A stretch of DNA of 64,000 nt from Clostridia bacterium (GTDB taxonomy: Bacteria; Bacillota; Clostridia; UMGS1883; UMGS1540), in contig JAFSAU010000008.1 of assembly GCA_017442155.1 (NCBI GenBank), positions 67,649 to 131,648 on the forward strand, given 5' to 3'. Below are positions 1 to 63,331 of this stretch, piece after piece. Below the pieces are notes generated by a model, which was not told the DNA's origin, ran no database searches, and saw nothing but the letters and a program-made list of their open reading frames with translations. A program made the position numbers and the translations under genes. Numbering within the stretch: position 1 is the stretch's first letter; the number at the start of each line of letters is the position of its first letter.

Positions 1-497
1 GGTATGTACCGAACAACCCCTTTGAGGAAGGCTATGTGAATATGCTGACCTCCATTCACATCCTGGCACAGGAATGTAAACGGCTGGGGCTGAATGTTCT
101 GTTTGAAACCGGTATGGAAGCACCGATTGTACTGCTGCGCCTGATTCAGGATGTGGGCTTTGACAATCTGTATATCAATTATGACCCGGCAAACATCTTT
201 ATTTATGGCTACGGCAATGCGATGGATGCCCTGCGTGTGTTTGGGAAGTATGTACGAAATATACACGGCAAGGACGGCACATTGCCCACGGATCCGCGCG
301 GTCTCGGAAAGGAAACACCGGCGGGACAGGGTATGGTAGATTTCCCGAAGGTATTTGAGATGCTGAAAGAGCTGGGCTATGATCGCTTCATCACCATTGA
401 ACGTGAAATTACGGGCGAACAGCAGACAAAGGATATTCTTATGGCGAAGGAATATTTTGAAGGTCTGCTGAAAAATCTGGGTTATACCATCGAATAG
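1..497 (+). CDS. Sugar phosphate isomerase/epimerase (xylose-isomerase-like TIM barrel), C-terminal part; 5' end lies outside the window
   Basis: The reading frame is open from the window edge, and the first in-frame start candidate is GTG at 36. The C-terminal motifs 'NIHGKDG...FITIEREITGEQ' are typical of AP-endonuclease-2/xylose-isomerase-like TIM proteins. Only a 14-bp gap separates it from the next gene, so it is probably co-transcribed. Confidence 0.6.
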   Translation, partial: YVPNNPFEEGYVNMLTSIHILAQECKRLGLNVLFETGMEAPIVLLRLIQDVGFDNLYINYDPANIFIYGYGNAMDALRVFGKYVRNIHGKDGTLPTDPRGLGKETPAGQGMVDFPKVFEMLKELGYDRFITIEREITGEQQTKDILMAKEYFEGLLKNLGYTIE

Positions 498-33459: not shown

Positions 33460-33470
33460 AGGTAAATCAA

Positions 33471-34665: not shown

Positions 34666-34703
34666 TTGACAAAACCATATGAATAAGCTTTGATATACAA
34701 GGG
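34666..34703 (+). promoter_or_regulatory. Island promoter module (box 1 TTGACAAAACCATA plus box 2 GCTTTGATATACAAGGG) upstream of 34772
   Basis: The near-identical two-box element is duplicated from the 33471 upstream region. Confidence 0.45.
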
Positions 34704-34771
34704 ATAAATTTTTATATTGACTTTACATGAGTCGGATTGCGTATAAATTTATCAAAATGGAGGACTTTAAA

Positions 34772-36052: not shown

Positions 36053-36129
36053 TATATCAGGAAGACAAATGCCGAAATAAAAGGCTTCCCCTCAAGGAGA
36101 AACCTCTGAGAAAACAAAATTTTTTGTCC

Positions 36130-36147
36130 CTGACTAACAAAATCATA
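36130..36147 (+). promoter_or_regulatory. Degenerate island box 1 ('ctgacTAACAAAATCATAg') upstream of 36185
   Basis: It shares the CTGAC prefix and AAAATCATA core with the 32022 and 33429 boxes. Confidence 0.35.
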
Positions 36148-36184
36148 GCGTAAATTATACCTAAAATAACGGAGGGAAACAAGT

Positions 36185-37057
36185 ATGAACCTTGCAACTA
36201 CAACGGAAGATTTTTCTTTTTACACCAATGACCAGACTAAGATAATAAAATGCATTAAAAAATCCGGGTTTACGTATGCAGATTACAGTTTCGGGGTGGA
36301 TTATAAAAACCGAAGCGGTATATATGCATCGGATTGGAAAAAGTATGTAAAGGAGCTGCAGGAGCATTGTAAAACCATAGGGGTAACGCTCATACAGGCA
36401 CATTCTCCAATGGGAACACCGCTTGCAGATAACAATGAAGAATTTATCAATGCTACAAAAAGATGCATAGAAGCTTGCGGCGTATTGGGGATAAAAAATA
36501 TAGTTGTCCATTCGGGCTACTTAAAAGGGATTTCTAAAAAAGAAACCCTTGAGAAAAATAAGCTGTTTTATGAAAACCTTCTTGGGACGGCAGAAAAATA
36601 TGAAGTAAACATACTGACTGAAAACTTCAATAAAATGTGCATTGAGGATATGTACTGGATTGATAATGCGACGGATTTACTGGAACTGATTGAATGCGTA
36701 AATCATCCTCTTTTTCACGCCGTATGGGACACCGGTCATGCCAATATGCAGGAAATGTCGCAGGAGGAAGAATTAACACGTTTGGGCAAGCACGTGAAAG
36801 CACTTCATATACATGATAACAACGGGGAGAAGGATCAGCATATGTGCCCGTTTTTTGGGACGCTGAACGTGGATTCTCTTGTAAAAGGATTGAAAAAAAT
36901 CGGGTATGACGGTTATTTTACTTTTGAGGCATCCAATTTCTTTGAACCGGCAACAATCTCAAATTCGGATTTTGAACCGGATCTGGACCTGAAGCTTGAA
37001 GCAGAAAAGTTACTCTGCAAAATAGGTGAGAAGATTCTGGAGAGGTATTCACTGTAA
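36185..37057 (+). CDS. Sugar phosphate isomerase/epimerase (xylose-isomerase-like TIM barrel)
   Basis: 'IVVHSGYLKG', 'VNILTENF', 'HAVWDTGHANM' and 'ALHIHDNNGEKDQH' are typical of AP-endo-2/XylI-like TIM proteins. RBS GGAGGG. Confidence 0.75.
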   Translation: MNLATTTEDFSFYTNDQTKIIKCIKKSGFTYADYSFGVDYKNRSGIYASDWKKYVKELQEHCKTIGVTLIQAHSPMGTPLADNNEEFINATKRCIEACGVLGIKNIVVHSGYLKGISKKETLEKNKLFYENLLGTAEKYEVNILTENFNKMCIEDMYWIDNATDLLELIECVNHPLFHAVWDTGHANMQEMSQEEELTRLGKHVKALHIHDNNGEKDQHMCPFFGTLNVDSLVKGLKKIGYDGYFTFEASNFFEPATISNSDFEPDLDLKLEAEKLLCKIGEKILERYSL

Positions 37058-37113
37058 TTTTTTGTTTCTGCCTTGACACGGTCTGAAATGGTGGTTTTAT
37101 TGAAAAGAATAGG

Positions 37114-37142
37114 TTGACAATATTTTGAAAATTGTATATAAT
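37114..37142 (+). promoter_or_regulatory. Consensus sigA promoter upstream of the GDPD gene
   Basis: TTGACA, a 17-nt spacer, then TATAAT ('TTGACAatattttgaaaattgtaTATAAT'). Confidence 0.65.
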
Positions 37143-37193
37143 ATACTCTATAAGGAAAAATATGAATTATTCTGCCGGAGGTGACGGACACGA

Positions 37194-37904
37194 ATGATCA
37201 ATTATGCACACAGAGGGGCAAGTGAATATGCGCCGGAAAACACACTGTCATCTTTTTATCTTGGATTGCAGCAAGGCGCAAACGGGATAGAAACGGATGT
37301 GCAGCGAACGAAAGACGGTACGTTGGTCTTGTTTCATGATGATACACTGGAACGAGTCACAAATGGAAAGGGAAGACTATCGGAACACACGTGGGAAGAG
37401 CTTAAAGCTTTGAAGGTTTACGGAAACAGTACGGTTGATTTTTTTGACAGAATCGTTACAGTAAGAGAGTTTTTAGAAAAATTTGCGTGTTATGATATAC
37501 ACTTTGCAATAGAACTTAAGGGCGAGGGCGTGGAGGCAGAAACACTTTCGCTGATAAAAGAGTACGGTGTTATCGGTAAAACCACATTTACAAGCTTTAA
37601 TTTTGAATATATCAAAAAAATAAAGGAAATCGACCCAAGTGCAAGAGTAGGATGGCTTACAGAAAACCCGGGAGAACAGGAGATAGAAAAATTATTGCGT
37701 ATCTCCGGTGAGGAAATGGCCCCAAAAGCCGAATATATCACGGAAGATTTAATGAACACGCTGCGAAAAAGAGGACTTGGAGTAAGAGCATGGGGCGTTT
37801 CAAACGTTTCGATTATGAAGAAAATGTGTCAGCTAAACGTTGACGGTATGACAGTGAATTTTCCGGATAGATTATTTGAGTGGCTGCATTGCAGGGGGAA
37901 ATAG
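37194..37904 (+). CDS. Glycerophosphodiester phosphodiesterase (GDPD family)
   Basis: '[16 protein letters not shown]', '[28 protein letters not shown]' and 'IELKG' are GDPD catalytic motifs. RBS GGAGGTG. Confidence 0.85.
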
Positions 37905-47732: not shown

Positions 47733-49180
47733 ATGAATGAGTTTACAAAGCTTTCGGTAGATGCACTTCAGAAGATGTTGCGAAATAAAGAAGTATCTGC
47801 TTGCGAAATTGCACAGGCCCATCTTACCCATATTCAAAAGATGGAGCCCGAGATTGACAGTCTCCTTACTATAACGCAGGACGAAGCACTTGAAAAGGCC
47901 GCGGCGGTTGATAAGAAGATTGCTGACGGAGAGCCGATTGCACCGCTTGCTGGCATACCGGTCGCCATTAAGGATAACATTTCCACAAAGGGTGTAAAAA
48001 CGACTTGTGCATCCAAAATGCTGCATAATTATGTTCCTCCCTATGATGCCACAGCCTATGCGCGACTGATGGAGCAGGACGCCGTTATGATTGGTAAGGC
48101 CAACATGGACGAATTTGCCATGGGGTCTTCTACAGAAAACTCTTATTTTAAAAAGACAAAAAATCCGGTCAACCCTGCACATGTGCCCGGTGGATCGTCC
48201 GGTGGCAGTGCAGCAGCAGTTGCATCGGGGGAGGCGGTCGTTTCTTTAGGCTCTGATACGGGCGGTTCCATTCGGCAGCCTGCATCCTTTTGCGGCATTG
48301 TTGGTATGAAGCCAACCTACGGCCTTGTATCCCGTTATGGTCTGATGCGTTTGCATCGTCACTGGATCAGATTGGACCGTTTGCCCGAAATGTGAAGGAC
48401 TGCGCAACGGTTCTTTCCGCAATCTGCGGAAAAGACGCGAAGGATTCTACATCCCTATCCGTTCCTACCCCTGATTTTATGGGTGCACTGACGGGCGAAT
48501 GCAAGGGCATGAAAATCGGACTTCCGAAGGAATATTTCAGTGACGCGGTGGACCCGGCAGTCCGGGATGCAGTGCTTTCGGCGGCAAAGAGTTATGAGGC
48601 TATGGGCGCAGAGGTTGCGGAATGTACCCTTCCCATGCTTGATTACGCACTGGAAGCATACTACCTGATTTCTTCTGCTGAAGCCAGCTCCAATCTCGCC
48701 CGGTATGACGGCGTACGGTATGGCTTTAGGGCAGAGGGCTGCAAGGATTTGGAAGACCTGTTCCTGAAAACAAGAAGCGAAGGCTTCGGGAAGGAAGTCA
48801 AACGCCGCATCATGCTGGGTACATTCGTTCTCAGCAGCGGCTATTATGATGCATATTATAAGAAAGCACAGCAGACCCGGACTTTGATTTGTCAGGACTT
48901 TGCCCGCGTGTTTGAAAGCTTTGATTGTATCCTGACGCCCACCTCGCCTTGCACGGCGTGGAAATTCGGAGAAAAATCGGCAGATCCTGTACAGATGTAC
49001 CTGGCAGATATCTGTACGGTATCGGTAAACATTGCAGGACTTCCGGCACTCAGTATGCCCTGCGGCACTGATGCGGCGGGGTTGCCGGTAGGCGTTCAGC
49101 TTATCGGCGGCAGACTCCGGGACGATGTGATTTTGCGGGCGGCCTACGCATTAGAACAAAACGGAAAGGGAGGCAGATAA
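47733..49180 (+). pseudogene. gatA: gatA (Glu-tRNA(Gln) amidotransferase subunit A) interrupted by a -1 frameshift near 48345
   Basis: Frame 1 carries the amidase signature '[14 protein letters not shown]...[32 protein letters not shown]' to about 48344. The canonical continuation '(I)[20 protein letters not shown]' is in the +1 frame (ORF 48290-49180). One nucleotide appears to be missing in 'ggtctgAT-gcgtttgca'. This is either a sequencing error or an authentic pseudogene. Confidence 0.8.
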
Positions 49181-50725: not shown

Positions 50726-50770
50726 AAACTGACTTCTCGTTTCAAGGGGAGTCAGTTTTGTTTTTAGTTG
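50726..50770 (+). terminator. Rho-independent terminator after gatCAB
   Basis: 'AACTGACTtctcgtttcaaggggAGTCAGTTttgttttt'. Confidence 0.6.
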
Positions 50771-50867: not shown

Positions 50868-51632
50868 CTAATTTATTTTCAGCTTTGCCTTGCGGTACTG
50901 TGAAGCTGTGGTACCGGTTATTTTTTTAAAGGTTTTTGAAAAATAATTATAGTCACCAAAGCCACAAAGCTCGGCAATTTCATAAAGGGAGTTAGTCTGT
51001 GTGATAATCATACGTTTTGCAAAATCTATCCGTTCTTCAGTAATATATTGTACGACTGTACCAGATGTATGCTTTTTGAAAAGGGAGCAGAGATATTGCG
51101 GAGCAAGATGAACGGCATCGGCTATCCTTTCAAGTGTCAGCGGTTCGGAAAGATGTGCAGCGATATACTGTTTTGCTTTTTTTATATGGGGATTTTCTAT
51201 ATCCAGCACTGTGTCAATCAGTTGATAATATAAATATGCAAAAATAGAGGCACATTTCTCCTGCTTATGGGCTGATACGGAGGTGAATTCCTTCTTAAAT
51301 GCTTCAAGCATGACAGGGGTATTGGATCGGATGCAGTTTGGTAAGTGACCGCAGATGAGTGGCTGAAAGTCATTGGGGAATAGGATGTTAAAACTGGCAT
51401 ACATAGCAGGTGCACTGCTGGGTGTACGCTTGCGGACCGAACCAGGGGGATACAAAATGGCATCACCGGCGTGCAGAAGAATTTTCTCGCCGTTCAGATA
51501 ATATTCCATGCTGCCTTCCAGCAGATATGTTAAATCCATATAGGGAATTGTAAGTTCGGGAAGCGGAATGACTGATTTTCGTCGGTAAAACGAGAATATT
51601 AAATATTTAGCAGACCGGAAAAGCGTGTCCAT
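50868..51632 (-). CDS. AraC family transcriptional regulator (cupin sensor domain plus HTH)
   Basis: 254 aa. The C-terminal 'RIADAVHLAPQYLCSLFKKHTSGT...YEIAELCGFGDYNYFSKTFKKITG' is an AraC HTH. It is divergent from the downstream isomerase/oxidoreductase/surface-enzyme locus. Confidence 0.85.
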   Translation of the reverse strand: MDTLFRSAKYLIFSFYRRKSVIPLPELTIPYMDLTYLLEGSMEYYLNGEKILLHAGDAILYPPGSVRKRTPSSAPAMYASFNILFPNDFQPLICGHLPNCIRSNTPVMLEAFKKEFTSVSAHKQEKCASIFAYLYYQLIDTVLDIENPHIKKAKQYIAAHLSEPLTLERIADAVHLAPQYLCSLFKKHTSGTVVQYITEERIDFAKRMIITQTNSLYEIAELCGFGDYNYFSKTFKKITGTTASQYRKAKLKIN

Positions 51633-51883
51633 TTAAATCACTCCTTAAAAAGATTCTGTATTCAGTATATCAGAAGGGTGAATAGATTTCAACCCTTTTT
51701 AATTTTTTTAAAGTAAAAATGTTAATTTTTAGTAAGCATAGCGTAATTTCAGATTTTTTAAAAAAGTGAAATCTTAAAATAAGACGAATTTTGATATAAT
51801 ATTGTTAAGATTGCTTATAGTATATAAGTGCAAAATCATTTATAATGAAATCAACAATATTGTTAATTGGGGAGCGATACAAA

Positions 51884-52633
51884 ATGGTAAAACTTGGGGT
51901 TGCCGACTACGGAATGCTTGTGTGGTACGGCGGACATTACGATTATGACGAACGCATTCAGGCAATCAGAAAAATTGGATACGACGGTCTGGAACGGCTG
52001 TATCCGGACAGTGCGGAGGATGCGCTTCGTAAGGCGGCACAGCTTCGAAAGCTGGGGATGGGCTTTGCAACCTGCAATGCCGCAACGCCGGAGCTTTCCA
52101 TTAAATGGACTGCGGCACTGGGAGCCTCATATGTATGGGCACAGGTAAAAGGACAGTCTTATGAGGCGTATCTCCGGCAAGTTTACGAAATGACCAAGGC
52201 GGCAGAAAAATACGGCGTAAAAATTGCGGTACATAATCATCTGGGCTCAATGGCGGAAAGTCAGGAGCAGGTAGAAACGATTCTTCACGAATGTCCGGAC
52301 ACGTATCTTCTGCTGGATACGGGTCATTTGGCCGTGGCCGGCGGGGATGTCCGCTATATTGCAGAAAAATATTACGACCGCATTGCAGCATATCATCTGA
52401 AGGGCTGGAAGCAAAGCACAACGCCGGATGCGGAAAAATGGCAGGACCGAGGGCATTTCTGCGGCCTTGGACAAGGTGACTTTTTCATTGATAATGAATT
52501 TGTATTCAAGAACGCAATCAAAAATGGCTTTGACGGCTGGGTTCACATCGAGCATGACACCCACGAGCAGGACCCTCACATTGATTTAAAGGAAAGCTTC
52601 GATATTTTACAGAAATGGAGGACAGAAGTATGA
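51884..52633 (+). CDS. Sugar phosphate isomerase/epimerase (xylose-isomerase-like TIM barrel)
   Basis: The ATG at 51884 is preceded by GGGGAG. 'AVHNHLGS', 'LLLDTGHL' and 'WVHIEHD' are present. Confidence 0.75.
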   Translation: MVKLGVADYGMLVWYGGHYDYDERIQAIRKIGYDGLERLYPDSAEDALRKAAQLRKLGMGFATCNAATPELSIKWTAALGASYVWAQVKGQSYEAYLRQVYEMTKAAEKYGVKIAVHNHLGSMAESQEQVETILHECPDTYLLLDTGHLAVAGGDVRYIAEKYYDRIAAYHLKGWKQSTTPDAEKWQDRGHFCGLGQGDFFIDNEFVFKNAIKNGFDGWVHIEHDTHEQDPHIDLKESFDILQKWRTEV

Positions 52634-53664
52634 GCAAACCTATAAAGCTCGGTATGGTAGGTCTCGGACGCGCCGGCTACGGGATGCACCTGAAAGAAAT
52701 GGAAGGGAAGGAGGACCTTTTTTCTATTACTGCCGTGTGTGATGTGGAGCCGGACCGGTGCGAGGCCATGAAAGAAAAGTACGGCTGTAAAACCTACATA
52801 AATGTGGAGGATTTGGTAGAGGACCCCGATGTGGAGGTGGTGGATATTGCCACCCGCTCCTGCGATCATTTCCGCCACGCGAAAACAGCACTGGAAGCCG
52901 GAAAAATTGTTTTCCTGGAAAAGCCCATTACGGAAACATATGAAGAAGCAAAGGCACTGATGGCACTGAACGAGAGCCTTGGCGGCAACAAGCTTTATAT
53001 CCGGCATAACCGCCGTTTTGAAGCGAAGTTCATGCAGGTGAATAAAATAATCGAGTCCGGTATTTTAGGGGATGTGTACCTGATTCGCCGCACTGTTGCG
53101 AATTATTCGCCCAGAACGGATTGGCAGACGCTTTCCCAGTATGGCGGCGGACAGCTCTTAAACTGGGGACCGCATATCGTGGACCAGGCACTGTGTTTTT
53201 GTGGTGGCGAGTATAAAAGAGTACAGGCCATTACAAGACAGGTGACCGCAGCAGGGGATTGTGAGGATTTTGTCCGCGCCGTTTTCGAGGGCGTAAATGA
53301 CAGAATTGTGGAAATCGAGATAAGTGGCGGAACGGCATTGCCGATACCGGAATACGTATTGTACGGCACGCGGGGTGCGCTGATTGATAAGGGAAAGACG
53401 TATACAATCAGGTGTCTGGCCGATTCGTATGTGATTCCGGAAAGAAAGGCGGACCCCCACACGCCCGAGGGTGCAAAGTTCAAGGCTTCAGAGCCGCTTC
53501 CCTTCGTAGAAGAGGAAAAGGAATGGGAAACCAATAAGCTGGACCATACCTGGACGTATCTTTACGAAACAGTGCGGGAAGGAAAAGCTTATCCCATAAA
53601 GAGTAAGGAAGCACTCAAGGTCATGGAAACAATTGACGAAATCATGCACCAAAATGTGCGCTAA
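52630..53664 (+). CDS. Gfo/Idh/MocA family NAD(P)-dependent oxidoreductase
   Basis: The ATG at 52630 is preceded by GGAGGA and overlaps the upstream stop (ATGA). The Rossmann N-terminus is 'IKLGMVGLGRAGYGMH'. 'FLEKP' and 'RHNRRF' are present. Confidence 0.8.
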   Translation: MSKPIKLGMVGLGRAGYGMHLKEMEGKEDLFSITAVCDVEPDRCEAMKEKYGCKTYINVEDLVEDPDVEVVDIATRSCDHFRHAKTALEAGKIVFLEKPITETYEEAKALMALNESLGGNKLYIRHNRRFEAKFMQVNKIIESGILGDVYLIRRTVANYSPRTDWQTLSQYGGGQLLNWGPHIVDQALCFCGGEYKRVQAITRQVTAAGDCEDFVRAVFEGVNDRIVEIEISGGTALPIPEYVLYGTRGALIDKGKTYTIRCLADSYVIPERKADPHTPEGAKFKASEPLPFVEEEKEWETNKLDHTWTYLYETVREGKAYPIKSKEALKVMETIDEIMHQNVR

Positions 53665-53712
53665 GTGCAGGGTACACTTTAAAATAAAAGTAAAAACAGG
53701 AGGTAATAAAGG

Positions 53713-55164
53713 ATGAATACTGTATTCAAAAAAATCATGGCTATGGGTATGGCCGCACTTCTGGGCATCGGCACAATGGGAATGATGGCGGTTTCGGCGG
53801 ATAATACAGCACTGAACACGGAACTGCTTGTAAATGGTGATTTTTCGCTCAAAGATGAAGACGGAGCGGTGGTAGGATGGAGCCTTACCAAGCCCAGTGG
53901 CTCAGGCGGATCTATTAAAGTTGAAAACGAGGTGCTTAGAATCAATGCATCACACGGCACTGTTGAAGGCGGAAATCTTGATGTGAGTAAGAGCTTATAT
54001 GCACTTAACAGATGGGACTACGCCAAATCTGCAAACGGAACAACTGTTATCTCCGGCAAAATATTTATTGAGTCCATGGAAGCCGGTTCGTCCGTAGTGA
54101 TTGATTCCAACCGCAAAGGCTTTGGTGCCGCGAATACTATGGGAGCCCAAATTACATATACGGAAGCGACAAAAGGTTGGAAGACTTTTGAAAGCACCAT
54201 TACGGACACAACTACAACAACAGAAGGATACATGTTCTATGTGCGCGTGTACGGAACTGCACTTGTATGGGTAGATGATGTTTCCATCCAGCATAAAGAA
54301 AGACTTTTGTTACCCGGAAACCTCTCATGGAGCGGTACAACTGCGTTAGCAAATGCTACGCATGGTTATATTAGTAATGAAGGCTATGGAGGAACTCCGA
54401 TAACACCGTATTCCGGGGATGACTGTTTTTATATATGGAACGGAACATTTAATGAAACGACGTATAGTTCGGCAAGGGCAACCACCCGTTTGGCAGCTAA
54501 TCCTGTCGCAGGGCAAACATATCGGGTGAGCATGCGGTTTAAACCGAATGTAAATGAGGCCACCTATTTAGGTCCACGAATAGATATTTTAGATTGGGCT
54601 TCTTATAGTAGCAACGATAAATTTCTAAGGATAGATAAGGATGACTGGACGGTCGGGAATGTTACAAATGGCTGGAGTGAGATTTCTGCATATTTCACTA
54701 TGCCAACATATGAGGCAAGTACCGTAGCAATAAAGTTTTATGGATATTTCGGTGGTTGGATTGATGATTTGATGATTGAACGGGATTGTGATAGAAATGT
54801 GGAAATCCTCAGCTCCAATTTTGAACCCATTGAAAAGGAAACCCCGGGTGCGACCGTTAAAGTGAAGGCCCATATTGTTTCCGACAAAATTGCAGACGAT
54901 GGCGGCAGAAAGGTGAAACTGGTGTTGGCACGTTATGCAAAGGTTGGTGATGCCATGCAGTGTATAGAAGTAAGTGTTTTAGATGAAACCGTAAATATGG
55001 GTACTGCAATGACAGGGTATACCACCGCAGCGAAAGATATTAGACTTGACTATGTAATTCCTGCAGATGCCGAAGGTCAGAGTATCAAGGCATTCCTGTG
55101 GGATGGCGAAAATGGAATTAATCCTATTGGAAAGAGAAGCGCAATTACGGTGAGTGCAAACTAA
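53713..55164 (+). CDS. Secreted protein with N-terminal CBM4/9-like module and C-terminal beta-sandwich domain; no SLH and no catalytic barrel
   Basis: 483 aa with RBS AGGAGGT and signal peptide MNTVFKKIMAMGMAALLGIGTMGMMAVSA. 'TELLVNGDFSLKDEDGAVVGWSL...' is present. The C-terminus '...IKAFLWDGENGINPIG' resembles the C-terminal domains of 13333-14916 and 58317-60530. Confidence 0.65.
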   Translation: MNTVFKKIMAMGMAALLGIGTMGMMAVSADNTALNTELLVNGDFSLKDEDGAVVGWSLTKPSGSGGSIKVENEVLRINASHGTVEGGNLDVSKSLYALNRWDYAKSANGTTVISGKIFIESMEAGSSVVIDSNRKGFGAANTMGAQITYTEATKGWKTFESTITDTTTTTEGYMFYVRVYGTALVWVDDVSIQHKERLLLPGNLSWSGTTALANATHGYISNEGYGGTPITPYSGDDCFYIWNGTFNETTYSSARATTRLAANPVAGQTYRVSMRFKPNVNEATYLGPRIDILDWASYSSNDKFLRIDKDDWTVGNVTNGWSEISAYFTMPTYEASTVAIKFYGYFGGWIDDLMIERDCDRNVEILSSNFEPIEKETPGATVKVKAHIVSDKIADDGGRKVKLVLARYAKVGDAMQCIEVSVLDETVNMGTAMTGYTTAAKDIRLDYVIPADAEGQSIKAFLWDGENGINPIGKRSAITVSAN

Positions 55165-55193
55165 AATAAAATAAGGGAAAATGAAATTTACTG

Positions 55194-55235
55194 CGGGGTT
55201 GTTTGGAAAAAGCAGAACAAACAACCCCGTTTGCA
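55194..55235 (+). terminator. Possible terminator/attenuator hairpin (12-bp stem, weak T-run)
   Basis: 'CGGGGTTGTTTGgaaaaagcagaaCAAACAACCCCGtttgc' lies between 53713-55164 and 55275. Confidence 0.4.
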
Positions 55236-55274
55236 AAATAGGAAGAGAATAAGTGAAAAAAAAGGAGTCATGCT

Positions 55275-58200
55275 ATGAAAAAAATACTAACAGTTTGTTT
55301 GTCTCTTCTGCTGTTGTTTGGCACGGCGGGAGTGCTTGCGGCTGATATGACAGACATCGTGACAAACGGCGGCTTTGAAGAGTATGCAGACCATATGCCC
55401 ACAGGGTGGAGTGTTCCGGTGGGAACACCGGGAGAGGATATCACAATCTCCGATGCGGCAGAGGAAGGAAAGGCTTCTGTCCGTCTTTCCGGAAAAAGTG
55501 ATAATGCATATATCAGTCAGGAAATAGAAGGCTTACGTGCCGGTGCGAAATACACGCTTTCTTTTTATATGCTCAGAAAGAAAGGCACTGAGATTACAGC
55601 CCGCGTTGATTTTTCCTACACGGAAAACGGAAGCAGACGGTATTTTTCCGATAATGCCGTCGTAACACCCCTGGGGGAAACGGAAATCGGAAAATGGATT
55701 AAAAAGGATATTCAGTTCACCGTTCCGCCCGGCACGGAAAAAACAGTAATTGCATTCCGCAAGGTAGGGGAGGCAGACGTATACTTTGATACTGTTTCCG
55801 TTTCCGGTGGAGACGAGAGTGGTGAGATTGCAGAGGTAGAGAAAACCGGCACCTGGACGCCCAGTGTCTTCGAGGACGCTGACAACATGATTACTAATCC
55901 TGATTTAGAGAAGATTTCCGACAATTTCCCCGCAGACTGGACACCCATTGCAAAGGATAAGGTAACCCTCAACACCAACAAAGAGTATGCAAGATCGGGT
56001 GACAAGTCTATTAAGATTACAGCGCAGGATTCCAGCTTGCCCTGGGCAAAGTTTGTTATCAGTGAAGGCATTATACCGGGGGCGGAATGTACGTATTCTG
56101 CATGGGTATATTCTCCGACGGAAGCCAACAACGTTGGTTTTAAAACGGAATATTATGTGCAAAACTATGACCATTCCGTTATGACGGGCTTCGCCAATTC
56201 TCCCCGCGTAAACCCCCGTGCAGCAGACGGATGGGTGCAGATAACAGGCACCGACATCATCCCCGATTCCTCTGATTCCGTAACGATTTATATACGTATG
56301 TATGGGCAGGGTGAGGTTTATATTGATGATGTGGAATTCAAACTCACAAAAGGCCCGGAAGCTTTTAATACTTTCCTTACAGATGAAGTATTCTATTATA
56401 GCGAATGGGAAGGTGCAGGCAAGGCAACCGTGACAGCGAACACCACATTTTATCCTGAATTTGCAGGCATGCCCCTGCACTTTACGGTACAGGATAAGGA
56501 AATGGTAATCTATGAAGAAACCATTCCCCTCCATGAATCGGGTAGCACTACCTTTGAGTTTCCGCTTACAGCGCTGGAAGAAAAAATGAAGGGATACACC
56601 ATCCGCGTAAAACTACACGACCATGAGGGTGGCTTTATTGCGCAGAAACAGGATACGGTTTATAAAGTGGACCGACCGAAGTATATTACCGAAGAAGGAT
56701 ATTATGTGGAAAATGGCGAACGGTTTGACCCCGTGTATCTGTATCACATTGCAAGAACAGAAGAAGATTTATCCAAAGCTTCGGAAGCAGGCTTTAACAT
56801 GATTCAGGGATATCCCGTGCAGGAACAGCTTGATCTGCTTGCAGAACATGGCATGAAGTGCTTTGCAGTTCTCTATACCGGCGGCTCCTCGGGCCAGAGT
56901 GCAGGTCACGAATCGAAAATTGAAAATACTATAAAACATGTAACCCAGTTTAAAGACCATCCTGCCATATTCGGCTGGTCCCTCATGGACGAACCGACCC
57001 CGGCGGCTTGGGAAGACCTGAAAAGAGCATATATCGAAATTCGCAAAATCGACCCGAATCACCCTGTTTTCATCACCATGAACAGTCATTTTGATACGTC
57101 CGGTCGATTTGCAGATACCATTTCTGCCGATAGCTACCCCTATGGTTTTTCACCCTTTACGACGACAGATTTTAAAAACGTAGATAAAGTGGTCGATATT
57201 GTTCGTAACCGTAAACCGGTGTATGACCTCCTTCAGGCTTTTGATTATCGGAATTCCTACCCCACAGCCAATGAAATGCGGAATATGATGTACCAGAATT
57301 TCTGGGCAGGGGCGGAAGGTATCGGCATATACTCTTGGAACGATTCCGGAAGAAATGAGGACGGCACAGCCATTCCGCTTTACGATACTCATCTTTGGGA
57401 ACCCATTACATCTTTCTTTGAACTGGAATATGACGAAGTGATTGACCACTTTGTATATAAGAAATATCCGACCTTCAATGAAGTAAGAGAAGAAGGATTC
57501 TGGTACCGCTCCTGGGTAAATGACGGAAGACTCAGCCTCGTTCTTTTAAACCGAAAGGACGAGGAGAATGTAGAGGCAACCGTAAATCTTACAAGTGCAG
57601 ACGGAAAAGTCAAAGTGGAAAACTTTACCGCACGGGTCATAAACGGTGCGGAAGCGGGAATCATAACCGGTAAAGACGGCACGTTTAAGGTAAATCTTGA
57701 ACCGGGACAGACAATTTTGTATAGCATTGATGTAGATAAGAATCTTTCCGGCACGGTTTCCAGCGGCTTCTTCGATATGTATCAGCACGGCTGGGCAGAA
57801 GAAGCGGTAAAAACCTTAAATGAAAAAGATGTTTTATACACAAACGGTCACAAATACTATCCCGGCGAAAATGTAACACGTGCAGATTTTGCATATATGC
57901 TGATGCGTGCTCTGGAGATTCCAGGGGCAGAAGCGGAGCAGTTTGCCGATGTGAAGGAATGGGATTACTATAAGGATGAACTTTCCGCCGGTCGTGATGC
58001 AGGTCTTTTGAACGGCATGGGCGAAAACATTTTCGGTGTAGATAATGACATTTCCCGTCAGGACATGATGGTCATGTGCATCCGTGCACTGGAATATACA
58101 GGAAAGCTGGAAGGCGCACAGGCGGCTGACCTAACCAAATTTACCGATAGCGCATCCATTGCAGATTATGCCGTGGAAGCCGTTGGCAAAATGGTAGGCT

Positions 58201-58301
58201 CCGGCCTCATCGTCGGCAATGCCGATGGTACGGTGAATCCCCTCGGCAATGCAACAAGAGCCGAAGCGGCAGTGATGATTGCACGTCTTATGGCACTTTG
58301 A
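55275..58301 (+). CDS. Secreted CBM4/9-like x2 + GH-A-like TIM barrel + C-terminal 3x SLH protein (paralog A5)
   Basis: 1008 aa with RBS AAGGAG and signal peptide MKKILTVCLSLLLLFGTAGVLA. Motifs include 'IVTNGGFEEYADHMPTGW', 'VYKVDRPKYITEEGYYVENGERF', 'DHPAIFGWSLMDEP', 'IRKIDPNHPVF', 'ISADSYP' and 'LLQAFDY'. Three C-terminal SLH repeats are present ('...NVTRADFAYMLMRALEI'). Confidence 0.8.
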   Translation: MKKILTVCLSLLLLFGTAGVLAADMTDIVTNGGFEEYADHMPTGWSVPVGTPGEDITISDAAEEGKASVRLSGKSDNAYISQEIEGLRAGAKYTLSFYMLRKKGTEITARVDFSYTENGSRRYFSDNAVVTPLGETEIGKWIKKDIQFTVPPGTEKTVIAFRKVGEADVYFDTVSVSGGDESGEIAEVEKTGTWTPSVFEDADNMITNPDLEKISDNFPADWTPIAKDKVTLNTNKEYARSGDKSIKITAQDSSLPWAKFVISEGIIPGAECTYSAWVYSPTEANNVGFKTEYYVQNYDHSVMTGFANSPRVNPRAADGWVQITGTDIIPDSSDSVTIYIRMYGQGEVYIDDVEFKLTKGPEAFNTFLTDEVFYYSEWEGAGKATVTANTTFYPEFAGMPLHFTVQDKEMVIYEETIPLHESGSTTFEFPLTALEEKMKGYTIRVKLHDHEGGFIAQKQDTVYKVDRPKYITEEGYYVENGERFDPVYLYHIARTEEDLSKASEAGFNMIQGYPVQEQLDLLAEHGMKCFAVLYTGGSSGQSAGHESKIENTIKHVTQFKDHPAIFGWSLMDEPTPAAWEDLKRAYIEIRKIDPNHPVFITMNSHFDTSGRFADTISADSYPYGFSPFTTTDFKNVDKVVDIVRNRKPVYDLLQAFDYRNSYPTANEMRNMMYQNFWAGAEGIGIYSWNDSGRNEDGTAIPLYDTHLWEPITSFFELEYDEVIDHFVYKKYPTFNEVREEGFWYRSWVNDGRLSLVLLNRKDEENVEATVNLTSADGKVKVENFTARVINGAEAGIITGKDGTFKVNLEPGQTILYSIDVDKNLSGTVSSGFFDMYQHGWAEEAVKTLNEKDVLYTNGHKYYPGENVTRADFAYMLMRALEIPGAEAEQFADVKEWDYYKDELSAGRDAGLLNGMGENIFGVDNDISRQDMMVMCIRALEYTGKLEGAQAADLTKFTDSASIADYAVEAVGKMVGSGLIVGNADGTVNPLGNATRAEAAVMIARLMAL

Positions 58302-58316
58302 TAAAAGGAGCAAGGT

Positions 58317-60530
58317 ATGTTTTTAAAAAGAATACTTGTGCTGACTCTTTTATGTATCCTATGTCTGTCCCCCGGCACCAATGCCGGGGCGGCAGATGCG
58401 GCAATTACAAATCCGTCCTTTGAAACCCTTCGGGCAGATAACGGATTTCCATCCTCCTGGAGTCGGTCGCATTCTGACCGCATCACAACAAACTCGGATA
58501 AACAGTATGTGCATTCGGGCGATTACTCTCTGAAGTTTGCACAAACAGTTTCGGACTATCCATATGCAAGAACGACCATTACTGGCATTGTCGGCGGTGC
58601 GGAATATACCTTCGGGGCATGGGCACTGACGATGAATCAAAATGTCGGCCTACGGTTTCGCTTCACCTGTATAGACGAAAACGGTGTCTGGCTTCATGAT
58701 GCCATGGGACTTGAAAGCTATAACGGCTATACCGGTTCGTGGTATCATTTTACCGAAAAATTCCGTCCGCCCCGCGGCACAGTCAGCATGTATCTGCAGC
58801 TGAGAATCAGCAGTCCCGGTGAGGCGTATTATGATGATGTATCCATAAGCATGACGGATGGACCGGAAATGCTGTATGATTTTGAAAGTGACAGCACATT
58901 CATTTATTCCGACAGCACCGGGAATGGAACGGTAAGTGTAAAAGTGGATACAGCGTATTATCCTGAGCTTTCGGGGGAGGATGTGACCTTTTCGTTATTC
59001 CGGGAAGATGCACCGGAGACCATACTGAAAACGCAAACCGTGAAGGTGCCGGAAAACGGGGAAGCTTCGTTTTCCTATCCTGTAAGTCTTCTTTCGGAAA
59101 AGCTGAAAGGGTATACCGTAAAATGCAGCTTCAAACCGCCGGAAGGGGAGGAAATCGTAAAAACCCATACGGTTTATAAAGTGGACAGACCGACACATAT
59201 TGATAAGAAAGGCTTTTTCCTGGATGAGAACAACAAAATTTTCACGCCTTCCATTATGTACGGTGTAAATTCCGAGCATTTTGATAAGCTGGAGGAAGTT
59301 GGTGTAAACGCTGTGCAGGGATATCATTCCACGGAGTGGCTCGATGCCCTGCATGAACGGAAAATGAAATGCTTTGTGGTACTGTACGGCGGCGGAAATT
59401 CCGCGGGCAGTGCCGCCCGTCTCAGCACCACAGTGAAGTACGTGAAAAGTGCCATGGAACATCCTGCGGTTTTCGGCTGGCTGATTTTTGACGAACCGAA
59501 TGCTGGAAAATCAACGGATTTGGAAGAATTGGTAAATGCTTATTTGGCAATCCGGGAAATTGATTCCGACCATCCGATTGTTATCACGGCGAATAACCAC
59601 TATGATGTTCTGCATCAGTATACCGATGCAATAATTCAGGACTCCTATCCGTACAACAACACGCGGTTTACCACATATCCGTACACGCGGAATGTGCAGG
59701 CTGTTGCCGAATCGGACGGAAGACCCGTGTATCACCTTATGCAGACCTTTGAGCATTTAAATACCTTCCCCCAGCCACAGGAGGTACGGAATATGCAGTA
59801 CGCATCCCTCTGGGCAGGCTGTAAGGGGTTTGGATGCTTCAAATACAAAGATTGCACAAGTGGAGGGGATAATCTGGATGAAACTGCACTCTGGGCACCG
59901 ATGAAAGCTTTTGCAGAGAGAGAACAGGAAATTGCACTGAATCTTTTTATATATAATAAATACGAAAAGATTGGTGAAGCGGAAACGGAAGCTTGTCAGT
60001 GGGGCGTATGGAAGGATGACGAAGAATATTTCGTCATTGTACGAAGCAAAAAATATAATGAGAGCATAACAGCCGAAGTGTCGGTTACGGCAGAGGGCTC
60101 ATGGCAGGCACAGCCAATTGGGGGCACACTTCAGTCCTTTTCCTCCGGAAACGGCAAGGCAAGTGTTACGGTGGGTGCCGGAGATGTGGTGCTTTTGCGG
60201 ATGAAAAAGGCACTGTTTCTGACAGAGGACGGTGAGCCGGTTACCGAAATTAAAGCCGGTATGAAATTAAATGTTCTTACAGGCGTGGAAACCGATGATA
60301 CAAATAGCCCGTTGCTTTTCATTTCGGTTGTCCGCGAGGATGCGGGAACAGAAGAATGTGTGGATGTCCGCATACCGGACTATACTGTGACAGCATCCGG
60401 CGAAAACAAAAATGTCTACAGCGTGGATGAAACGGTTGAAATTCCACGGGGAATGGGAAGATACAGCGTGAAAATTTTTTATTGGAACCGAAGCCTGCAT
60501 TGCCTGGATGAGGCAAGACAGGTGGGGTAG
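58317..60530 (+). CDS. Secreted CBM4/9-like + GH-A-like TIM barrel protein with C-terminal beta-sandwich instead of SLH (paralog A6)
   Basis: 737 aa with RBS AAGGAG and signal peptide MFLKRILVLTLLCILCLSPGTNAGA. Motifs include 'ITNPSFETLRADNGFPSSW', 'VYKVDRPTHIDKKGFFLDENNKIFTPSIMYGVNSEHF', 'EHPAVFGWLIFDEP', 'IREIDSDHPIV', 'IIQDSYP' and 'LMQTFEH'. The C-terminal ~120 aa end '...KIFYWNRSLHCL'. Confidence 0.8.
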   Translation: MFLKRILVLTLLCILCLSPGTNAGAADAAITNPSFETLRADNGFPSSWSRSHSDRITTNSDKQYVHSGDYSLKFAQTVSDYPYARTTITGIVGGAEYTFGAWALTMNQNVGLRFRFTCIDENGVWLHDAMGLESYNGYTGSWYHFTEKFRPPRGTVSMYLQLRISSPGEAYYDDVSISMTDGPEMLYDFESDSTFIYSDSTGNGTVSVKVDTAYYPELSGEDVTFSLFREDAPETILKTQTVKVPENGEASFSYPVSLLSEKLKGYTVKCSFKPPEGEEIVKTHTVYKVDRPTHIDKKGFFLDENNKIFTPSIMYGVNSEHFDKLEEVGVNAVQGYHSTEWLDALHERKMKCFVVLYGGGNSAGSAARLSTTVKYVKSAMEHPAVFGWLIFDEPNAGKSTDLEELVNAYLAIREIDSDHPIVITANNHYDVLHQYTDAIIQDSYPYNNTRFTTYPYTRNVQAVAESDGRPVYHLMQTFEHLNTFPQPQEVRNMQYASLWAGCKGFGCFKYKDCTSGGDNLDETALWAPMKAFAEREQEIALNLFIYNKYEKIGEAETEACQWGVWKDDEEYFVIVRSKKYNESITAEVSVTAEGSWQAQPIGGTLQSFSSGNGKASVTVGAGDVVLLRMKKALFLTEDGEPVTEIKAGMKLNVLTGVETDDTNSPLLFISVVREDAGTEECVDVRIPDYTVTASGENKNVYSVDETVEIPRGMGRYSVKIFYWNRSLHCLDEARQVG

Positions 60531-60550
60531 AGAGAAAGGCAGGTAACAAA

Positions 60551-63259
60551 ATGAAAAGAAGAATATTAGGAATATTTGTTCTGATAACAATTCTTCTGGC
60601 AGGTATTCCGGCTGGTGCGGAATTTATTGATGTACATGGAACAAAATATGAGGACGCCGTACGGCTGTTATGCGACATCGAAATCATGGAAGGGGTATCT
60701 CCTGATTTTTTTGAGCCGTCAGAACCTGTCCGGCGCAGCGATGCCGCAAGGTACATTGCTTTACTTTCCGGTGTACAGGGTACCGGAGGCGTGGAAGTAT
60801 TTACGGACGTTCCGTCGTCACATCCCGATTTTGCGGCCATTGGTCTTGTGCATCAGATGGGAATTGTTTCCGGTGTGGGTGACGGATGTTTTGACCCGGA
60901 CGGGTTTGTTTCTGCGGCACAGGCGGCAAAAATGCTCGTAACGCTTGCCGGATATCAGCCGCACGCAGAAGCGGAGGGCGGCTATCCTACAGGATATCTG
61001 TCTCTTGCGCATCGTCTGGAAATTCTCGATGGTGTTTCCACAGACGCTTCCTTTGCAAAAGGTGATTTTGCCCGGATGCTTTATAACACTTTGTTTGTCT
61101 TTCCGGCAGAACAGGCTTCATACGGGGATACGGACGGCAGTTATACAGAAAACGAGAAAAATATTTTAAAGCAGTTCCTGCATATCAGCGAAGTAAAAGG
61201 AATGGTCACGGCAAATGCGGCAACGGCTGTGAGAGGTGCTGTTCTCCGCAGCGGGGAAGTGGCTGTGGAAGGAAGCGTGTTTTATGCACCGGATGCCCTT
61301 GCACAGAAAATCGGCAGACAGGTAGTTGTGTATTATAAAGAAAATGAATTCGGGGAAAAAGAGGTTATTTCTTTCCGGGATGCGGGGAATACAACTACAC
61401 TTACTCTGGATGCAGAGGATGTATTGCCTGCCACAACGGTTAATTCCATTGTGTATCAAAGAAGTGAGGACACACGTGCATTGACTCTGGCAATTGCATC
61501 GGATGCGGTAGTGCTTTATAATGGAAGTGCGTGCGCTCCCTTTACAGCAGACGATCTTAGGCCCTTGCAGGGAAGAGTTTGTATTACCGAAACCAGAAGC
61601 GGCACGGCCTCTCTGATTGTGGTGGAAGAGTACAAAGACATGATAGTGGCTGACGTAAACAAAGAAGAAAGCATTCTGTATTTTAAAAATGCTCTGCCCG
61701 GAGAAACCGAGCTTTCTTATGCTGATACCAACGTATATACTACGGTAACAGATACAAAAGGGAATCTGGCAGACTTGGGAAGCTGTAGCAAAGGTACGGT
61801 ACTTTCTGTTATGGAAAGCCGGGATAAGAGCGTGCGGAAAATTGTTGTAAGCACAGAGAAAATCGGAGGCATCATAACGGAAAAGACAGATGATACAGTA
61901 TATATCGACGGCAAATCCTATGCATTTTCTGCAAACTTTGCCGAAACCATTCCGGCAATAGGCGACAATGTACAGCTTGCATTAAACTTTGTCGGAGAAA
62001 TAGTGGCAGTGGAAGCAAATGTTTCTTCCCGAAAATACGGGTATCTGATGTATGCTACCTTTGAGGGAAAAGGACTTTCCAGAGCACCGAAGGTAAAGAT
62101 TCTGACTTCCGATGATGAAATCAAGGTGTTTGAGGCTGCGGAATCTGTAAAGATTAATTCGGTCACAGTCGGAAAAAATGAGCTGTTTAATTCTGAAGCC
62201 ACGCTTTCCGATGCTGCAAATGCGGAGGTTTCTAAGATTTATAACAATAATGAAACAGTGGAACAGCTGATTGTATACGAGCTGAACGAGAAGGGAGAAT
62301 TTAGCTCTATTACAACGGCGGAAAACCGCACAGAGATATTCGAAAGAGACAGAAGCGTATTCTCCCTGCAGTATGAAGCAGACAGCGGAATGTTCCTCGC
62401 ATACGGACTTCGTATGTTTAACTCGAAGCTTAGAATTCCTACAGACACAATTGTTTTCTCTGTCGGTGAAAGCTATACGGGGAGCAACGATGACCAGTAT
62501 AAAGTGACCGCAGGTTCATCCCTGGAGCATTCCGGCCACTATCCGGGTCTGAAATTATACGACTTGAACGAAGAAAATGAAGCGGCAGTGATGGTCACAA
62601 AGCTGGATTTGAGTGATGCTGCATCGATGTACGAATCAAATGCCGTGCTTGTTAAGAGTGTTTCGACAGTGGCACTGGAGGATGGCGAGATTTGTGAGGC
62701 AGTACGTGTTGTAGGTGCCGGCGGAAAAGAACAGCTTCTTTATAATCCGAACGAAATTCAGGCAGTCTTTTCTGCAACGGCAATCACAAATGCGGAGGCA
62801 GATGCAACGGCTGTGGTCGGTGCGGATGGCGCAAAAAAGCTTCCTGCGAACATTGCAATTTCACAGCTTGAACCGGGGGATGTTATCAAGTATGCGGCAG
62901 TTAATGACAATCTGACAAATGCGATGGTATGCTTTAGGGCCGGTTCTCCCAAAGAACTGGAAATGGCTTTTGAAGGAACAACAAGAAAATGGCCTTCAGC
63001 AACTAACGACTATTATCTGGGGCTGTGGGTATATTCAAAAGTAATTTATGCAGGAGAAAACGGCTTCCGTTTCTATGCTACCAACCATAAGGATGAACAG
63101 CGTGAGCGAGTGCATACATACGGCAGTGCAACGGTACTGATCTTTGATACGGTGCGGCAGTCCATTAAAGTAGGAAGTGCGAATTCTCTTTCAAAAGACG
63201 ATATGTTCTTTGCTTCCCGAAAGAATGCGGCAGAACATCTGATTGTAATTTACAGATAA
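60551..63259 (+). CDS. Large cell-surface protein with N-terminal SLH triplet (S-layer-like; paralog B2)
   Basis: 902 aa with RBS GAAAGG and signal peptide MKRRILGIFVLITILLAGIPAGA. The N-terminal SLH repeats are 'FIDVHGTKYEDAVRLLCDIEIMEGV...', 'FTDVPSSHPDFAAIGLVHQMGIVSGVGDGCFDPDGFVSAAQAAKMLVTLAGY' and 'AEGGYPTGYLSLAHRLEILDGV'. The C-terminal '...HLIVIYR' matches B1's '...RIIVVYR'. Confidence 0.7.
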   Translation: MKRRILGIFVLITILLAGIPAGAEFIDVHGTKYEDAVRLLCDIEIMEGVSPDFFEPSEPVRRSDAARYIALLSGVQGTGGVEVFTDVPSSHPDFAAIGLVHQMGIVSGVGDGCFDPDGFVSAAQAAKMLVTLAGYQPHAEAEGGYPTGYLSLAHRLEILDGVSTDASFAKGDFARMLYNTLFVFPAEQASYGDTDGSYTENEKNILKQFLHISEVKGMVTANAATAVRGAVLRSGEVAVEGSVFYAPDALAQKIGRQVVVYYKENEFGEKEVISFRDAGNTTTLTLDAEDVLPATTVNSIVYQRSEDTRALTLAIASDAVVLYNGSACAPFTADDLRPLQGRVCITETRSGTASLIVVEEYKDMIVADVNKEESILYFKNALPGETELSYADTNVYTTVTDTKGNLADLGSCSKGTVLSVMESRDKSVRKIVVSTEKIGGIITEKTDDTVYIDGKSYAFSANFAETIPAIGDNVQLALNFVGEIVAVEANVSSRKYGYLMYATFEGKGLSRAPKVKILTSDDEIKVFEAAESVKINSVTVGKNELFNSEATLSDAANAEVSKIYNNNETVEQLIVYELNEKGEFSSITTAENRTEIFERDRSVFSLQYEADSGMFLAYGLRMFNSKLRIPTDTIVFSVGESYTGSNDDQYKVTAGSSLEHSGHYPGLKLYDLNEENEAAVMVTKLDLSDAASMYESNAVLVKSVSTVALEDGEICEAVRVVGAGGKEQLLYNPNEIQAVFSATAITNAEADATAVVGADGAKKLPANIAISQLEPGDVIKYAAVNDNLTNAMVCFRAGSPKELEMAFEGTTRKWPSATNDYYLGLWVYSKVIYAGENGFRFYATNHKDEQRERVHTYGSATVLIFDTVRQSIKVGSANSLSKDDMFFASRKNAAEHLIVIYR

Positions 63260-63284: not shown

Positions 63285-63331
63285 CCCCCCTTTTATCAGA
63301 TATTTTTGTCTGATAAAGGGGGTCGTTTTTT
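63285..63331 (+). terminator. Strong rho-independent terminator ending the second surface-enzyme operon
   Basis: 'CCCCCCTTTTATCAGAtatttttgTCTGATAAAGGGGGGtcgttttttg'. Confidence 0.8.

Follow-up and report, generated by a model that had tools for sequence, protein, structure and literature searches.

Pairs of a dehydrogenase and a triosephosphate isomerase (TIM)-barrel protein are the core of non-hydrolytic routes by which unusual sugars and glycosides are processed in gut bacteria. The closest described systems are the C-glycoside deglycosylation system DgpA/DgpB-DgpC of gut Lachnospiraceae; IolG or IolW together with IolE, where oxidation is followed by carbonyl-assisted dehydration; LgdA/LgdB, BT2156-2160 and the Agrobacterium 3-keto-glycoside route, which consists of a 3-dehydrogenase, a lyase and a hydratase; and YcjS/YcjR of Escherichia coli, a glucoside 3-dehydrogenase and a 3-keto-glycoside 4-epimerase. 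Here we analyzed a 64,000-nucleotide (nt) stretch of DNA, referred to below as the window, from a Clostridia bacterium (assembly GCA_017442155.1, contig JAFSAU010000008.1, positions 67,649 to 131,648 of the forward strand), in which genes encoding a xylose-isomerase-like TIM-barrel protein and a Gfo/Idh/MocA oxidoreductase (called TIM and MocA below) lie next to a divergent AraC-family regulator gene. We give about even credence to the reading that these three genes form a catabolic module of gut Oscillospirales-type Clostridia that is self-contained and inducible by an effector, and that would work via a keto intermediate. The genes of the module are as follows, lengths being given in amino acids (aa):

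50868..51632, minus strand: AraC/XylS-family regulator, 254 aa, with two HTH_AraC matches (E 2e-22), HTH_18 and an N-terminal cupin domain (Pfam)
51884..52633, plus strand: xylose-isomerase-like TIM-barrel protein, 249 aa, IolE-like, assigned from PF01261 (E 7.6e-22), the structural model and invariant residues
52630..53664, plus strand: Gfo/Idh/MocA oxidoreductase, predicted to be NAD-dependent, 344 aa, assigned from PF01408, PF22725, GLGRAG, D38 and EKP

The window pair shares with the Dgp system a MocA-family dehydrogenase, a xylose-isomerase-like TIM barrel and an origin in a gut Firmicute, but it comprises a single TIM gene, unlike the Dgp system with its DgpB/DgpC heteromer, and no DgpB/C or CarB/C chain was present among the top 50 Foldseek matches of TIM. 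The original prediction had named DgpA/DgpBC among its examples of such pairs. Since the similarity of MocA to DgpA is about the same as that to IolW and YhhX, it does not show orthology with DgpA, and the likeness is one at clade level, as judged by bit scores. The likeness to IolG or IolW and IolE lies in oxidation followed by a step assisted by the carbonyl, whereas TIM lacks about 50 aa in comparison with IolE, and their alignment is mainly confined to the C-terminal half; none of iolD, iolB, iolC and iolJ was found between 50868 and 63322, which does not qualify as an iol operon. The same dehydrogenase and TIM-barrel logic is common to the LgdA/LgdB, BT2156-2160 and Agrobacterium routes, in contrast to which the window MocA carries no twin-arginine translocation (TAT) or other signal peptide and TIM is only 14-15% identical to the lyases. 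YcjS and YcjR belong to the same two superfamilies and are likewise adjacent in a sugar operon, but the window MocA is 27% identical to YcjS over the N-terminal 195 aa only, and YcjR shows no significant sequence similarity to the window TIM (E 0.05).

The gene arrangement described in the original prediction, with a divergent AraC gene and a TIM/MocA pair coupled by an ATGA overlap at 52630, was confirmed, although the starts of both open reading frames (ORFs) had to be corrected. In the case of TIM, the ORF called mechanically runs from 51845 to 52633; the ATG at 51884 sits after a GGGAG motif, all 23 orthologous TIM proteins align from M-x-K-x-GVADYG, and the ATG at 51845 falls within the predicted -10 box. 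The true start is almost certainly 51884. The MocA ORF opens at 52615 and contains an ATG at 52630, 8 nt past GGAGGA, which is almost certainly the true start. This start overlaps the TIM stop codon by 4 nt (ATGA), and the same overlap is present in the gene calls of six further loci, which are designated L003, L006, L008, L098, L100 and L101 (loci from other contigs are numbered in this way throughout); on this evidence MocA is translationally coupled to TIM. Neither protein has a signal peptide, and both are therefore presumed to be cytoplasmic. The regulator gene is separated from the TIM gene by a spacer of 251 nt, and its product combines a C-terminal double helix-turn-helix with an N-terminal cupin sensor domain (Cupin_2 lies just under the Pfam cut-off); the two helix-turn-helix stretches and the cupin domain place it by sequence in the AraC/XylS family.

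The assignment of MocA to the Gfo/Idh/MocA superfamily is based on the scores of PF01408 (88.7 bits) and PF22725 (74.7 bits), both of which exceed the cut-off, and GLGRAG, K98 of the EKP motif and H182 are invariant among the 35 sequences aligned. The protein also has H182/D185, and an invariant Asn178 takes the place of the Asp normally found upstream. The presence of an invariant Asp38 after beta-2 suggests a preference for NAD rather than NADP. The protein was placed within the superfamily by ranking bit scores against the PDB and NCBIfam, in place of a tree with characterized enzymes. Against the curated NCBIfam models, the scores all fell far short of the cut-offs: 111 for PRK11579, 110 for the YhhX type, 98.3 for IolG (TIGR04380, cut-off 355), 65.4 for BT_2159 (cut-off 650), 62.3 for LgdA (NF052479, cut-off 650) and 39.4 for BT_2158 (cut-off 750). 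When the family profile was compared with the PDB, the best match was 3e18 (140 bits), followed by other uncharacterized proteins at about 125 bits, YvaA/IolW (125 bits), DgpA2 (9m37, 122.6 bits over a full-length alignment), and YhhX and DgpA (120 bits each). The IolG-type enzymes scored 70-84 bits, the glucuronide 3-dehydrogenase 66, and the C1 enzymes lower still: 59 bits for aldose-aldose oxidoreductase, and 51 each for galactose 1-dehydrogenase and glucose-fructose oxidoreductase (GFOR). This ranking designates scyllo-inositol dehydrogenase and the C-glycoside 3-oxidoreductases as the nearest characterized relatives, about equally distant from MocA. The original prediction had proposed placing the dehydrogenase relative to glycoside 3-dehydrogenases and IolG; firm clustering with myo-inositol or glucose-fructose oxidoreductases, together with a lack of co-regulation with the downstream genes, would have counted against it. 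By its bit scores the enzyme is closest to the YhhX / IolW / DgpA group and does not cluster with IolG or GFOR. It does not qualify as a member of the IolG, LgdA, BT_2158, BT_2159, DgpA or YcjS families. A role as an NAD-dependent GH109-like glycosidase was also considered and rejected, since no GH109_C match was obtained; a weak GH109_C match was found only in the different MocA of L099.

TIM belongs by its profile score to the xylose-isomerase-like TIM barrels (PF01261, 78.6 bits against a cut-off of 31.1), and its AlphaFold2 (AF2) model (mean predicted local distance difference test, pLDDT, 96.8) shows eight beta/alpha units. Its best NCBIfam match is IolE (TIGR04379), with a score of 79.3 bits that falls far below the cut-off of 290 and an alignment that covers residues 85-246 only, so that it is not counted as an IolE; by sequence, the PDB entries closest to it are IolE proteins and Art22. 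The Foldseek ranking is headed by the Art22 isomerase, IolE and the 2-hydroxy-3-keto-glucal hydratase AtHYD (8ro4, rank 8), followed by UlaE, and lower down by the 3-keto-glucoside 1,2-lyases AL1 and BT1 (ranks 24-40) and YcjR (rank 42). All of the solved folds nearest to TIM belong to proteins whose substrates are keto-sugars or keto-cyclitols. IolE, AtHYD and the 3-keto-glucoside lyases have in common the abstraction of a proton next to the carbonyl in a keto-sugar or keto-cyclitol. The residues H117-N118-H119, E125, D145, G147-H148, H171, K173, E223, D225 and H227 are invariant, and among them are candidates for the metal-site residues that the original prediction had suggested looking for (HNH, D145, H171 and E223). 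The invariance of the putative metal-binding and catalytic residues is consistent with an active metal-dependent enzyme.

With MocA as the query, 1758 database relatives were obtained at E <= 0.001, and species-representative genomes yielded more than 597 loci, nearly all of them in metagenome-assembled genomes (MAGs) of gut or rumen Clostridia; the 80 loci fetched include a single named isolate, Bianquea renquensis. Conservation was assessed in 18 distinct loci from MAGs of gut Clostridia, with a MocA identity of at least 58%. An orthologous TIM gene is present in 16 of them and a divergent AraC gene in 15, and given this conservation the AraC|TIM-MocA arrangement is, as far as gene order can tell, not due to chance. 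Homologs with less than about 55% identity occur in unrelated contexts and are therefore regarded as paralogous subfamilies. A homolog of the glucuronoyl esterases of carbohydrate esterase family 15 (CE15), lacking a signal peptide, is encoded in 8 of the 18 loci, mostly right after MocA, and in four more distant loci, and genes resembling those of glycoside hydrolase family 2 (GH2-like genes) occur in six (six lineages). The other neighbors of the module, which include DUF4838, PGA_cap, GNAT_C and an extra TIM, are glycan-related but heterogeneous. The most complete version of the locus was observed at 786-19613 of L100, where an extra AraC-family gene and a GH29/GHL6 gene are followed by the module and the surface genes, all on a single strand; the gene order in the module and beyond is AraC | TIM-MocA-515aa-1015aa-713aa-155aa-907aa-CE15-PGA_cap-DUF4838. 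The fact that in L100 the surface block separates MocA from the CE15, PGA_cap and DUF4838 genes, and that elsewhere CE15 is located directly 3' of MocA and is followed by PGA_cap (L011) or DUF4838 (L014), suggests that the block was inserted into an older operon.

The region between the regulator and TIM genes, and the flanks of the genes downstream, contain the following predicted signals:

51774..51811, plus strand: putative AraC operator with direct half-sites TTAAAAT (51774-51780) and TTAAGAT (51805-51811), start-to-start spacing 31 nt
51841..51846, plus strand: predicted -10 box TATAAT of the TIM-MocA promoter, starting 36 nt beyond the first base of the proximal half-site
50726..50758, plus strand: terminator-like hairpin after gatB, which would insulate the module from the upstream gatCAB genes
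63287..63322, plus strand: strong intrinsic-terminator-like hairpin with 16 pairs and a T-run, at the end of a putative six-gene operon

The composite operator pattern has a single match within the window, versus 0.01 expected. The 31-nt spacing of the half-sites recurs in L010, L098, L100 and L013, and twice in L015, and the 36-nt offset between the proximal half-site and TATAAT is fixed in the window, L010, L098, L100, L011 and L013. The full 31-nt and 36-nt geometry is thus found upstream of TIM in L010, L098, L100 and L013, and the 36-nt part alone in L011; the loci where the geometry recurs span 62-88% TIM identity. The combined operator-promoter pattern was present in six of the 100 loci scanned, in five of them just upstream of TIM; L015 carries it twice, before a GH2-like gene and before TIM-MocA (1356-1428 and 4478-4550). 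The L015 contig (10.8 kb) contains no AraC gene, the place of which is occupied by an aminoglycoside 3-N-acetyltransferase-family gene. In the usual layout of AraC-type activation, a half-site lies beside the -35 region, as the proximal site does here. We infer from the sequence that the half-sites act as the AraC operator and that AraC activates the promoter.

The gaps between the successive genes after MocA are 49, 110, 15 and 20 nt long, and a scan of the plus strand from 51884 to 63259 gave nothing comparable to the hairpin at 63287-63322. Since there is no strong terminator between 51884 and 63287, the pair probably heads a six-gene operon, comprising TIM, MocA and the genes for a 483-aa secreted protein, a 1008-aa protein, a 737-aa GH2-like protein and a 902-aa protein with S-layer homology (SLH) domains. 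This agrees with the original prediction, where the surface genes were placed downstream of the pair. The four genes of the surface block are:

53713..55164, plus strand: secreted protein, 483 aa, first gene of the block, with a signal-peptide-like N-terminus in the translation
55275..58301, plus strand: surface protein, 1008 aa, with CBM4_9, a GH2-like core and three SLH domains (Pfam CBM_4_9, SLH)
58317..60530, plus strand: secreted GH2-like protein, 737 aa, assigned from the model and fold matches, with candidate catalytic residues Glu393 and Glu479
60551..63259, plus strand: 902-aa protein with N-terminal SLH domain(s) (Pfam SLH), last gene of the putative operon

The 737-aa protein has no GH2 Pfam match and no PDB sequence match at E <= 1, and only 13 homologs were found among 5.8 billion proteins searched. 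Its AF2 model (pLDDT 88) most closely resembles GH2 beta-glucuronidases and beta-galactosidases (Foldseek E of about 1e-18, 10-12% identity). Glu393 (DEP), located after beta-4 (strand 385-392), is invariant, and Glu479 (QTFE), located after beta-7 (strand 471-476), is nearly so (>=90%). In clan GH-A, catalytic residues are expected after beta-4 and beta-7. Judging from the model, the downstream paralogs have a GH2-type fold with glutamates at these two positions. The likeness to GH2 thus consists of the predicted domain order, the TIM-barrel fold and the candidate acid/base and nucleophile glutamates, but in contrast to true GH2 members the downstream paralogs are only 10-12% identical to the matched enzymes, GH2_C stays just under its threshold on the 1008-aa protein (20.9 bits versus a cut-off of 21) and gives no match on the others, and the family has very few members. 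With 32% identity, the 1008-aa and 737-aa proteins are paralogous to each other, and they show 20-24% identity to the four large proteins of a first surface locus near the start of the window. Six large paralogs in all were observed, at 512-21037 and 55275-60530, most of which carry CBM4_9 and SLH domains; based on the model, they could be a new glycoside hydrolase family. A metagenome scan with one of them, A3, yielded seven distant relatives only (22-43% identity), which proved uninformative. The 483-aa protein, presented in the original prediction as a carbohydrate-binding module (CBM) protein, has no Pfam or NCBIfam match; its counterparts occupy the same position in L098, L100, L099 and L015, and a weak CBM4_9 match was obtained in the case of L015 only. 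A protein of about 900 aa with N-terminal SLH domains follows the GH2-like gene in each window locus (3795-6488 and 60551-63259); the large bodies of these two proteins have no Pfam or PDB sequence match. The PDB sequence matches of the 902-aa protein consist of SLH domains only, and in L098, L099 and L100 its orthologs come after the GH2-like genes.

A MocA gene, a TIM gene or both adjoin every one of the eight GH2-like blocks examined (the two window loci, L098, L099, L100, L009, L010 and L015). The L098 block has the same gene order as the second window locus, and next to the L099 block are a gene of TIM size, at the edge of the contig, and a MocA of a different, third type. The first surface locus of the window has a pair of its own, only part of which lies within the window:

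3..497, plus strand: second xylose-isomerase-like TIM, C-terminal 164 aa of 280 (PF01261), the full gene being present in L090

This gene leads directly into the first surface locus. L090, which extends the sequence of this genome past the window start, shows a second MocA gene ahead of it, the order at the head of the locus being a 356-aa protein, the second MocA, the second TIM and the first large paralog. The original prediction was right in calling the gene at 1-497 isomerase/epimerase-like and in placing it before the paralog A1; it is a partial gene with a MocA gene before it, and the idea that it is a paralog of the TIM at 51884 was rejected (E 0.1). The two MocA proteins of the genome are 28% identical and the pairs are non-orthologous. 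The nearest matches of the second MocA are levoglucosan dehydrogenase and L-glucose/scyllo-inositol dehydrogenase, its score against the LgdA model being 136.7 bits, below the cut-off of 650, and the nearest solved relative of the second TIM is 3tva. A divergent operon was observed beside the second pair, at 1-9986 of L090, directly upstream of window position 1: it encodes a GlcD-like FAD oxidase, an Fe-S protein, a class II ketose-bisphosphate aldolase, a PfkB kinase, an IolB that scores 252 bits, above the equivalog cut-off of 205, and XylB. Taken with the duplicated operator-promoter of L015, the gene neighborhoods argue for a real functional and regulatory link between the surface enzymes and TIM-MocA.

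The best-supported chemistry is one in which the substrate is oxidized and then acted on next to the ketone, and we infer both the order of the reactions and the keto intermediate. In this genome, the GH2-like S-layer enzymes would be the likely source of a sugar or oligosaccharide freed outside the cell, which would then be imported. The cupin-domain AraC protein would bind a sugar-derived effector, either the sugar or a product of it, and activate the promoter, the proximal half-site of which abuts the -35 region. In the cytoplasm, the NAD-dependent dehydrogenase would convert a secondary alcohol of the imported sugar, glycoside or cyclitol into a ketone, and the IolE-like metal-dependent TIM would use the carbonyl for the elimination or addition of water, the elimination of a substituent, or an isomerization. 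The same promoter would also drive the secreted or S-layer-anchored block, here and in five other lineages, so that extracellular release and intracellular processing would be co-induced. The idea of oxidation followed by a TIM step was already part of the original prediction and was retained, while the specific C3 oxidation of a glycoside which it envisaged is not supported. At 8133-10102 of L102, an aminotransferase gene takes the place of MocA after a TIM ortholog (69% identity), and this arrangement hints that the substrate or the product of TIM is a keto compound also open to transamination.

Several observations weigh against the keto-intermediate module as described above. Neither protein reaches a curated cut-off, which means that no regiochemistry or substrate can be assigned, and the solved proteins nearest to the dehydrogenase are for the most part uncharacterized products of structural genomics. 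The surface block is missing from 12 of the 18 module loci, and the neighbors of the module are mixed, including CE15, GH29, GH39, GH78, NagA/NagB, GNAT, M20 and beta-lactamase-fold proteins. The putative operon contains no transporter or kinase gene. The promoter and terminator scans give matches of the consensus type at background frequency. The module is found much more widely than the surface enzymes, mostly in loci that lack them, and its function is therefore not tied to the surface locus. This bears on a rather improbable alternative, in which TIM-MocA would be an independent housekeeping-type module and the surface genes would have landed behind its promoter by chance: the 12 loci lacking the GH2-like block fit this explanation, as does the great rarity of the GH2-like family (13 homologs) in comparison with the MocA matches and loci, but a chance landing would not account for the presence of MocA, TIM or both at all eight blocks, among them two non-orthologous pairs from a single genome and a third MocA type in L099, nor for the duplicated operator before the GH2-like gene in L015.

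Two other alternatives retain the pair as a catabolic unit and differ as to its substrate. It is possible, although unlikely, that an inositol isomer, a cyclitol or an aminocyclitol is oxidized to an inosose and then converted into a diketone, the later steps being encoded elsewhere in the genome. The fact that IolE is the best NCBIfam and PDB sequence match of TIM, the rank of IolW (YvaA) among the top dehydrogenase matches, and the true IolB equivalog, PfkB kinase and class II aldolase just upstream of the first surface locus all point in this direction. However, the scores are far short of the IolG (98/355) and IolE (79/290) cut-offs, no IolD was seen in the regions examined, the operon containing IolB lies about 60 kb off, beside the other, non-orthologous pair, and it is glycan-related genes rather than iol genes that adjoin the module in other genomes. 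An even smaller probability than that of the chance landing is attached to an oxidative aldose route, in which MocA would oxidize C1 to give a lactone, the CE15-like hydrolase would open it and TIM would dehydrate the resulting aldonic or uronic acid. This route is favored by the CE15-like esterase which follows MocA in the loci mentioned above, by the 2-dehydro-3-deoxygalactonokinase gene 5' of MocA in L001, by the UxaC and UxuA genes nearby in L004, and by the xylose-isomerase-like fold of the UxuA-type dehydratases. It is contradicted by the family profile, which scores far lower against the C1 dehydrogenases (51-59 bits) than against the IolW/DgpA clade, by the lack of a UxuA match for TIM, by the absence of the CE15 gene from the window, and by the fact that the L001 TIM falls in a different cluster.

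The keto-intermediate reading can be taken one step further, although only tentatively: the module, its cytoplasmic partners and the S-layer GH2-like proteins would then make up an undescribed glycan-utilization system of herbivore and human gut Clostridia, with a new keto-intermediate pathway for a modified sugar and, in the GH2-like proteins, a new glycoside hydrolase family. The partners may include the CE15 esterase, DUF4838, PGA_cap and genes of the amidase, deacetylase and N-acetyltransferase types, and candidates for the modified sugar would be, among others, uronic acids bearing ester or methyl groups and amino sugars with an N-acyl group. In the literature, nothing relevant was found on the combination of CE15 and MocA, on 4-O-methyl-glucuronate catabolism, on xylose-isomerase-like proteins in connection with 3-keto compounds, or on Art22, and the searches otherwise yielded only the known background on DgpA, Lgd and BT2158.

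Other parts of the window contain genes of related or separate interest. The stretch from 30033 to 37904 encodes a GNAT_C/NAT_N protein, a 2-phosphosulfolactate-phosphatase-like protein, a ceramidase-like amidase, an M20 protein, a PF12831 FAD oxidoreductase, a third TIM (36185-37057) and a GDPD protein, and several of its Pfam families also follow TIM-MocA in L006, L084, L098, L099 and L101. The M20 protein and the FAD oxidoreductase were compared with those of L006, and the ceramidase-like protein with that of L084: the similarity is weak, amounting to 21-28% over long stretches and 40% over one stretch of 89 residues (E 1e-5 to 6e-8). A link between the module and these genes was therefore left aside as unproven, and the glycosyl-inositol-phosphoceramide reading built on this likeness is speculation only. 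Upstream of the module, the gatA gene (47733-49180) lacks a single base at about 48345 and is thereby broken into two overlapping ORFs (GGTCTGA-TGCG, versus GGTCTGATTGCG in the 99.2%-identical MAG contig JAZQHE010000019, where GatA is intact with 482 aa), which is either an assembly error or the mark of a pseudogene. On the minus strand, two tandem paralogous genes encoding SH3 and NlpC/P60 cell-wall hydrolases (23237-24705) are located between the first surface locus and the housekeeping genes.

The module is best described as an uncharacterized subfamily of a well-known enzyme couple; its regulator, gene coupling and overall logic are ordinary for sugar catabolism. What sets it apart is its repeated linkage to a rare, sequence-novel family of SLH-anchored GH2-like proteins, its frequent cytoplasmic CE15 partner and the clean architecture of its operator. 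The subfamily is widespread in uncultured gut and rumen Clostridia and has no characterized member, and the operator layout, together with the linkage to the GH2-like proteins and the CE15 esterases, provides handles for finding its substrate. If the substrate is inositol or a common sugar, the finding is an ordinary one. If a modified plant or host sugar is involved, the module would represent an additional pathway, perhaps together with an additional glycoside hydrolase family.

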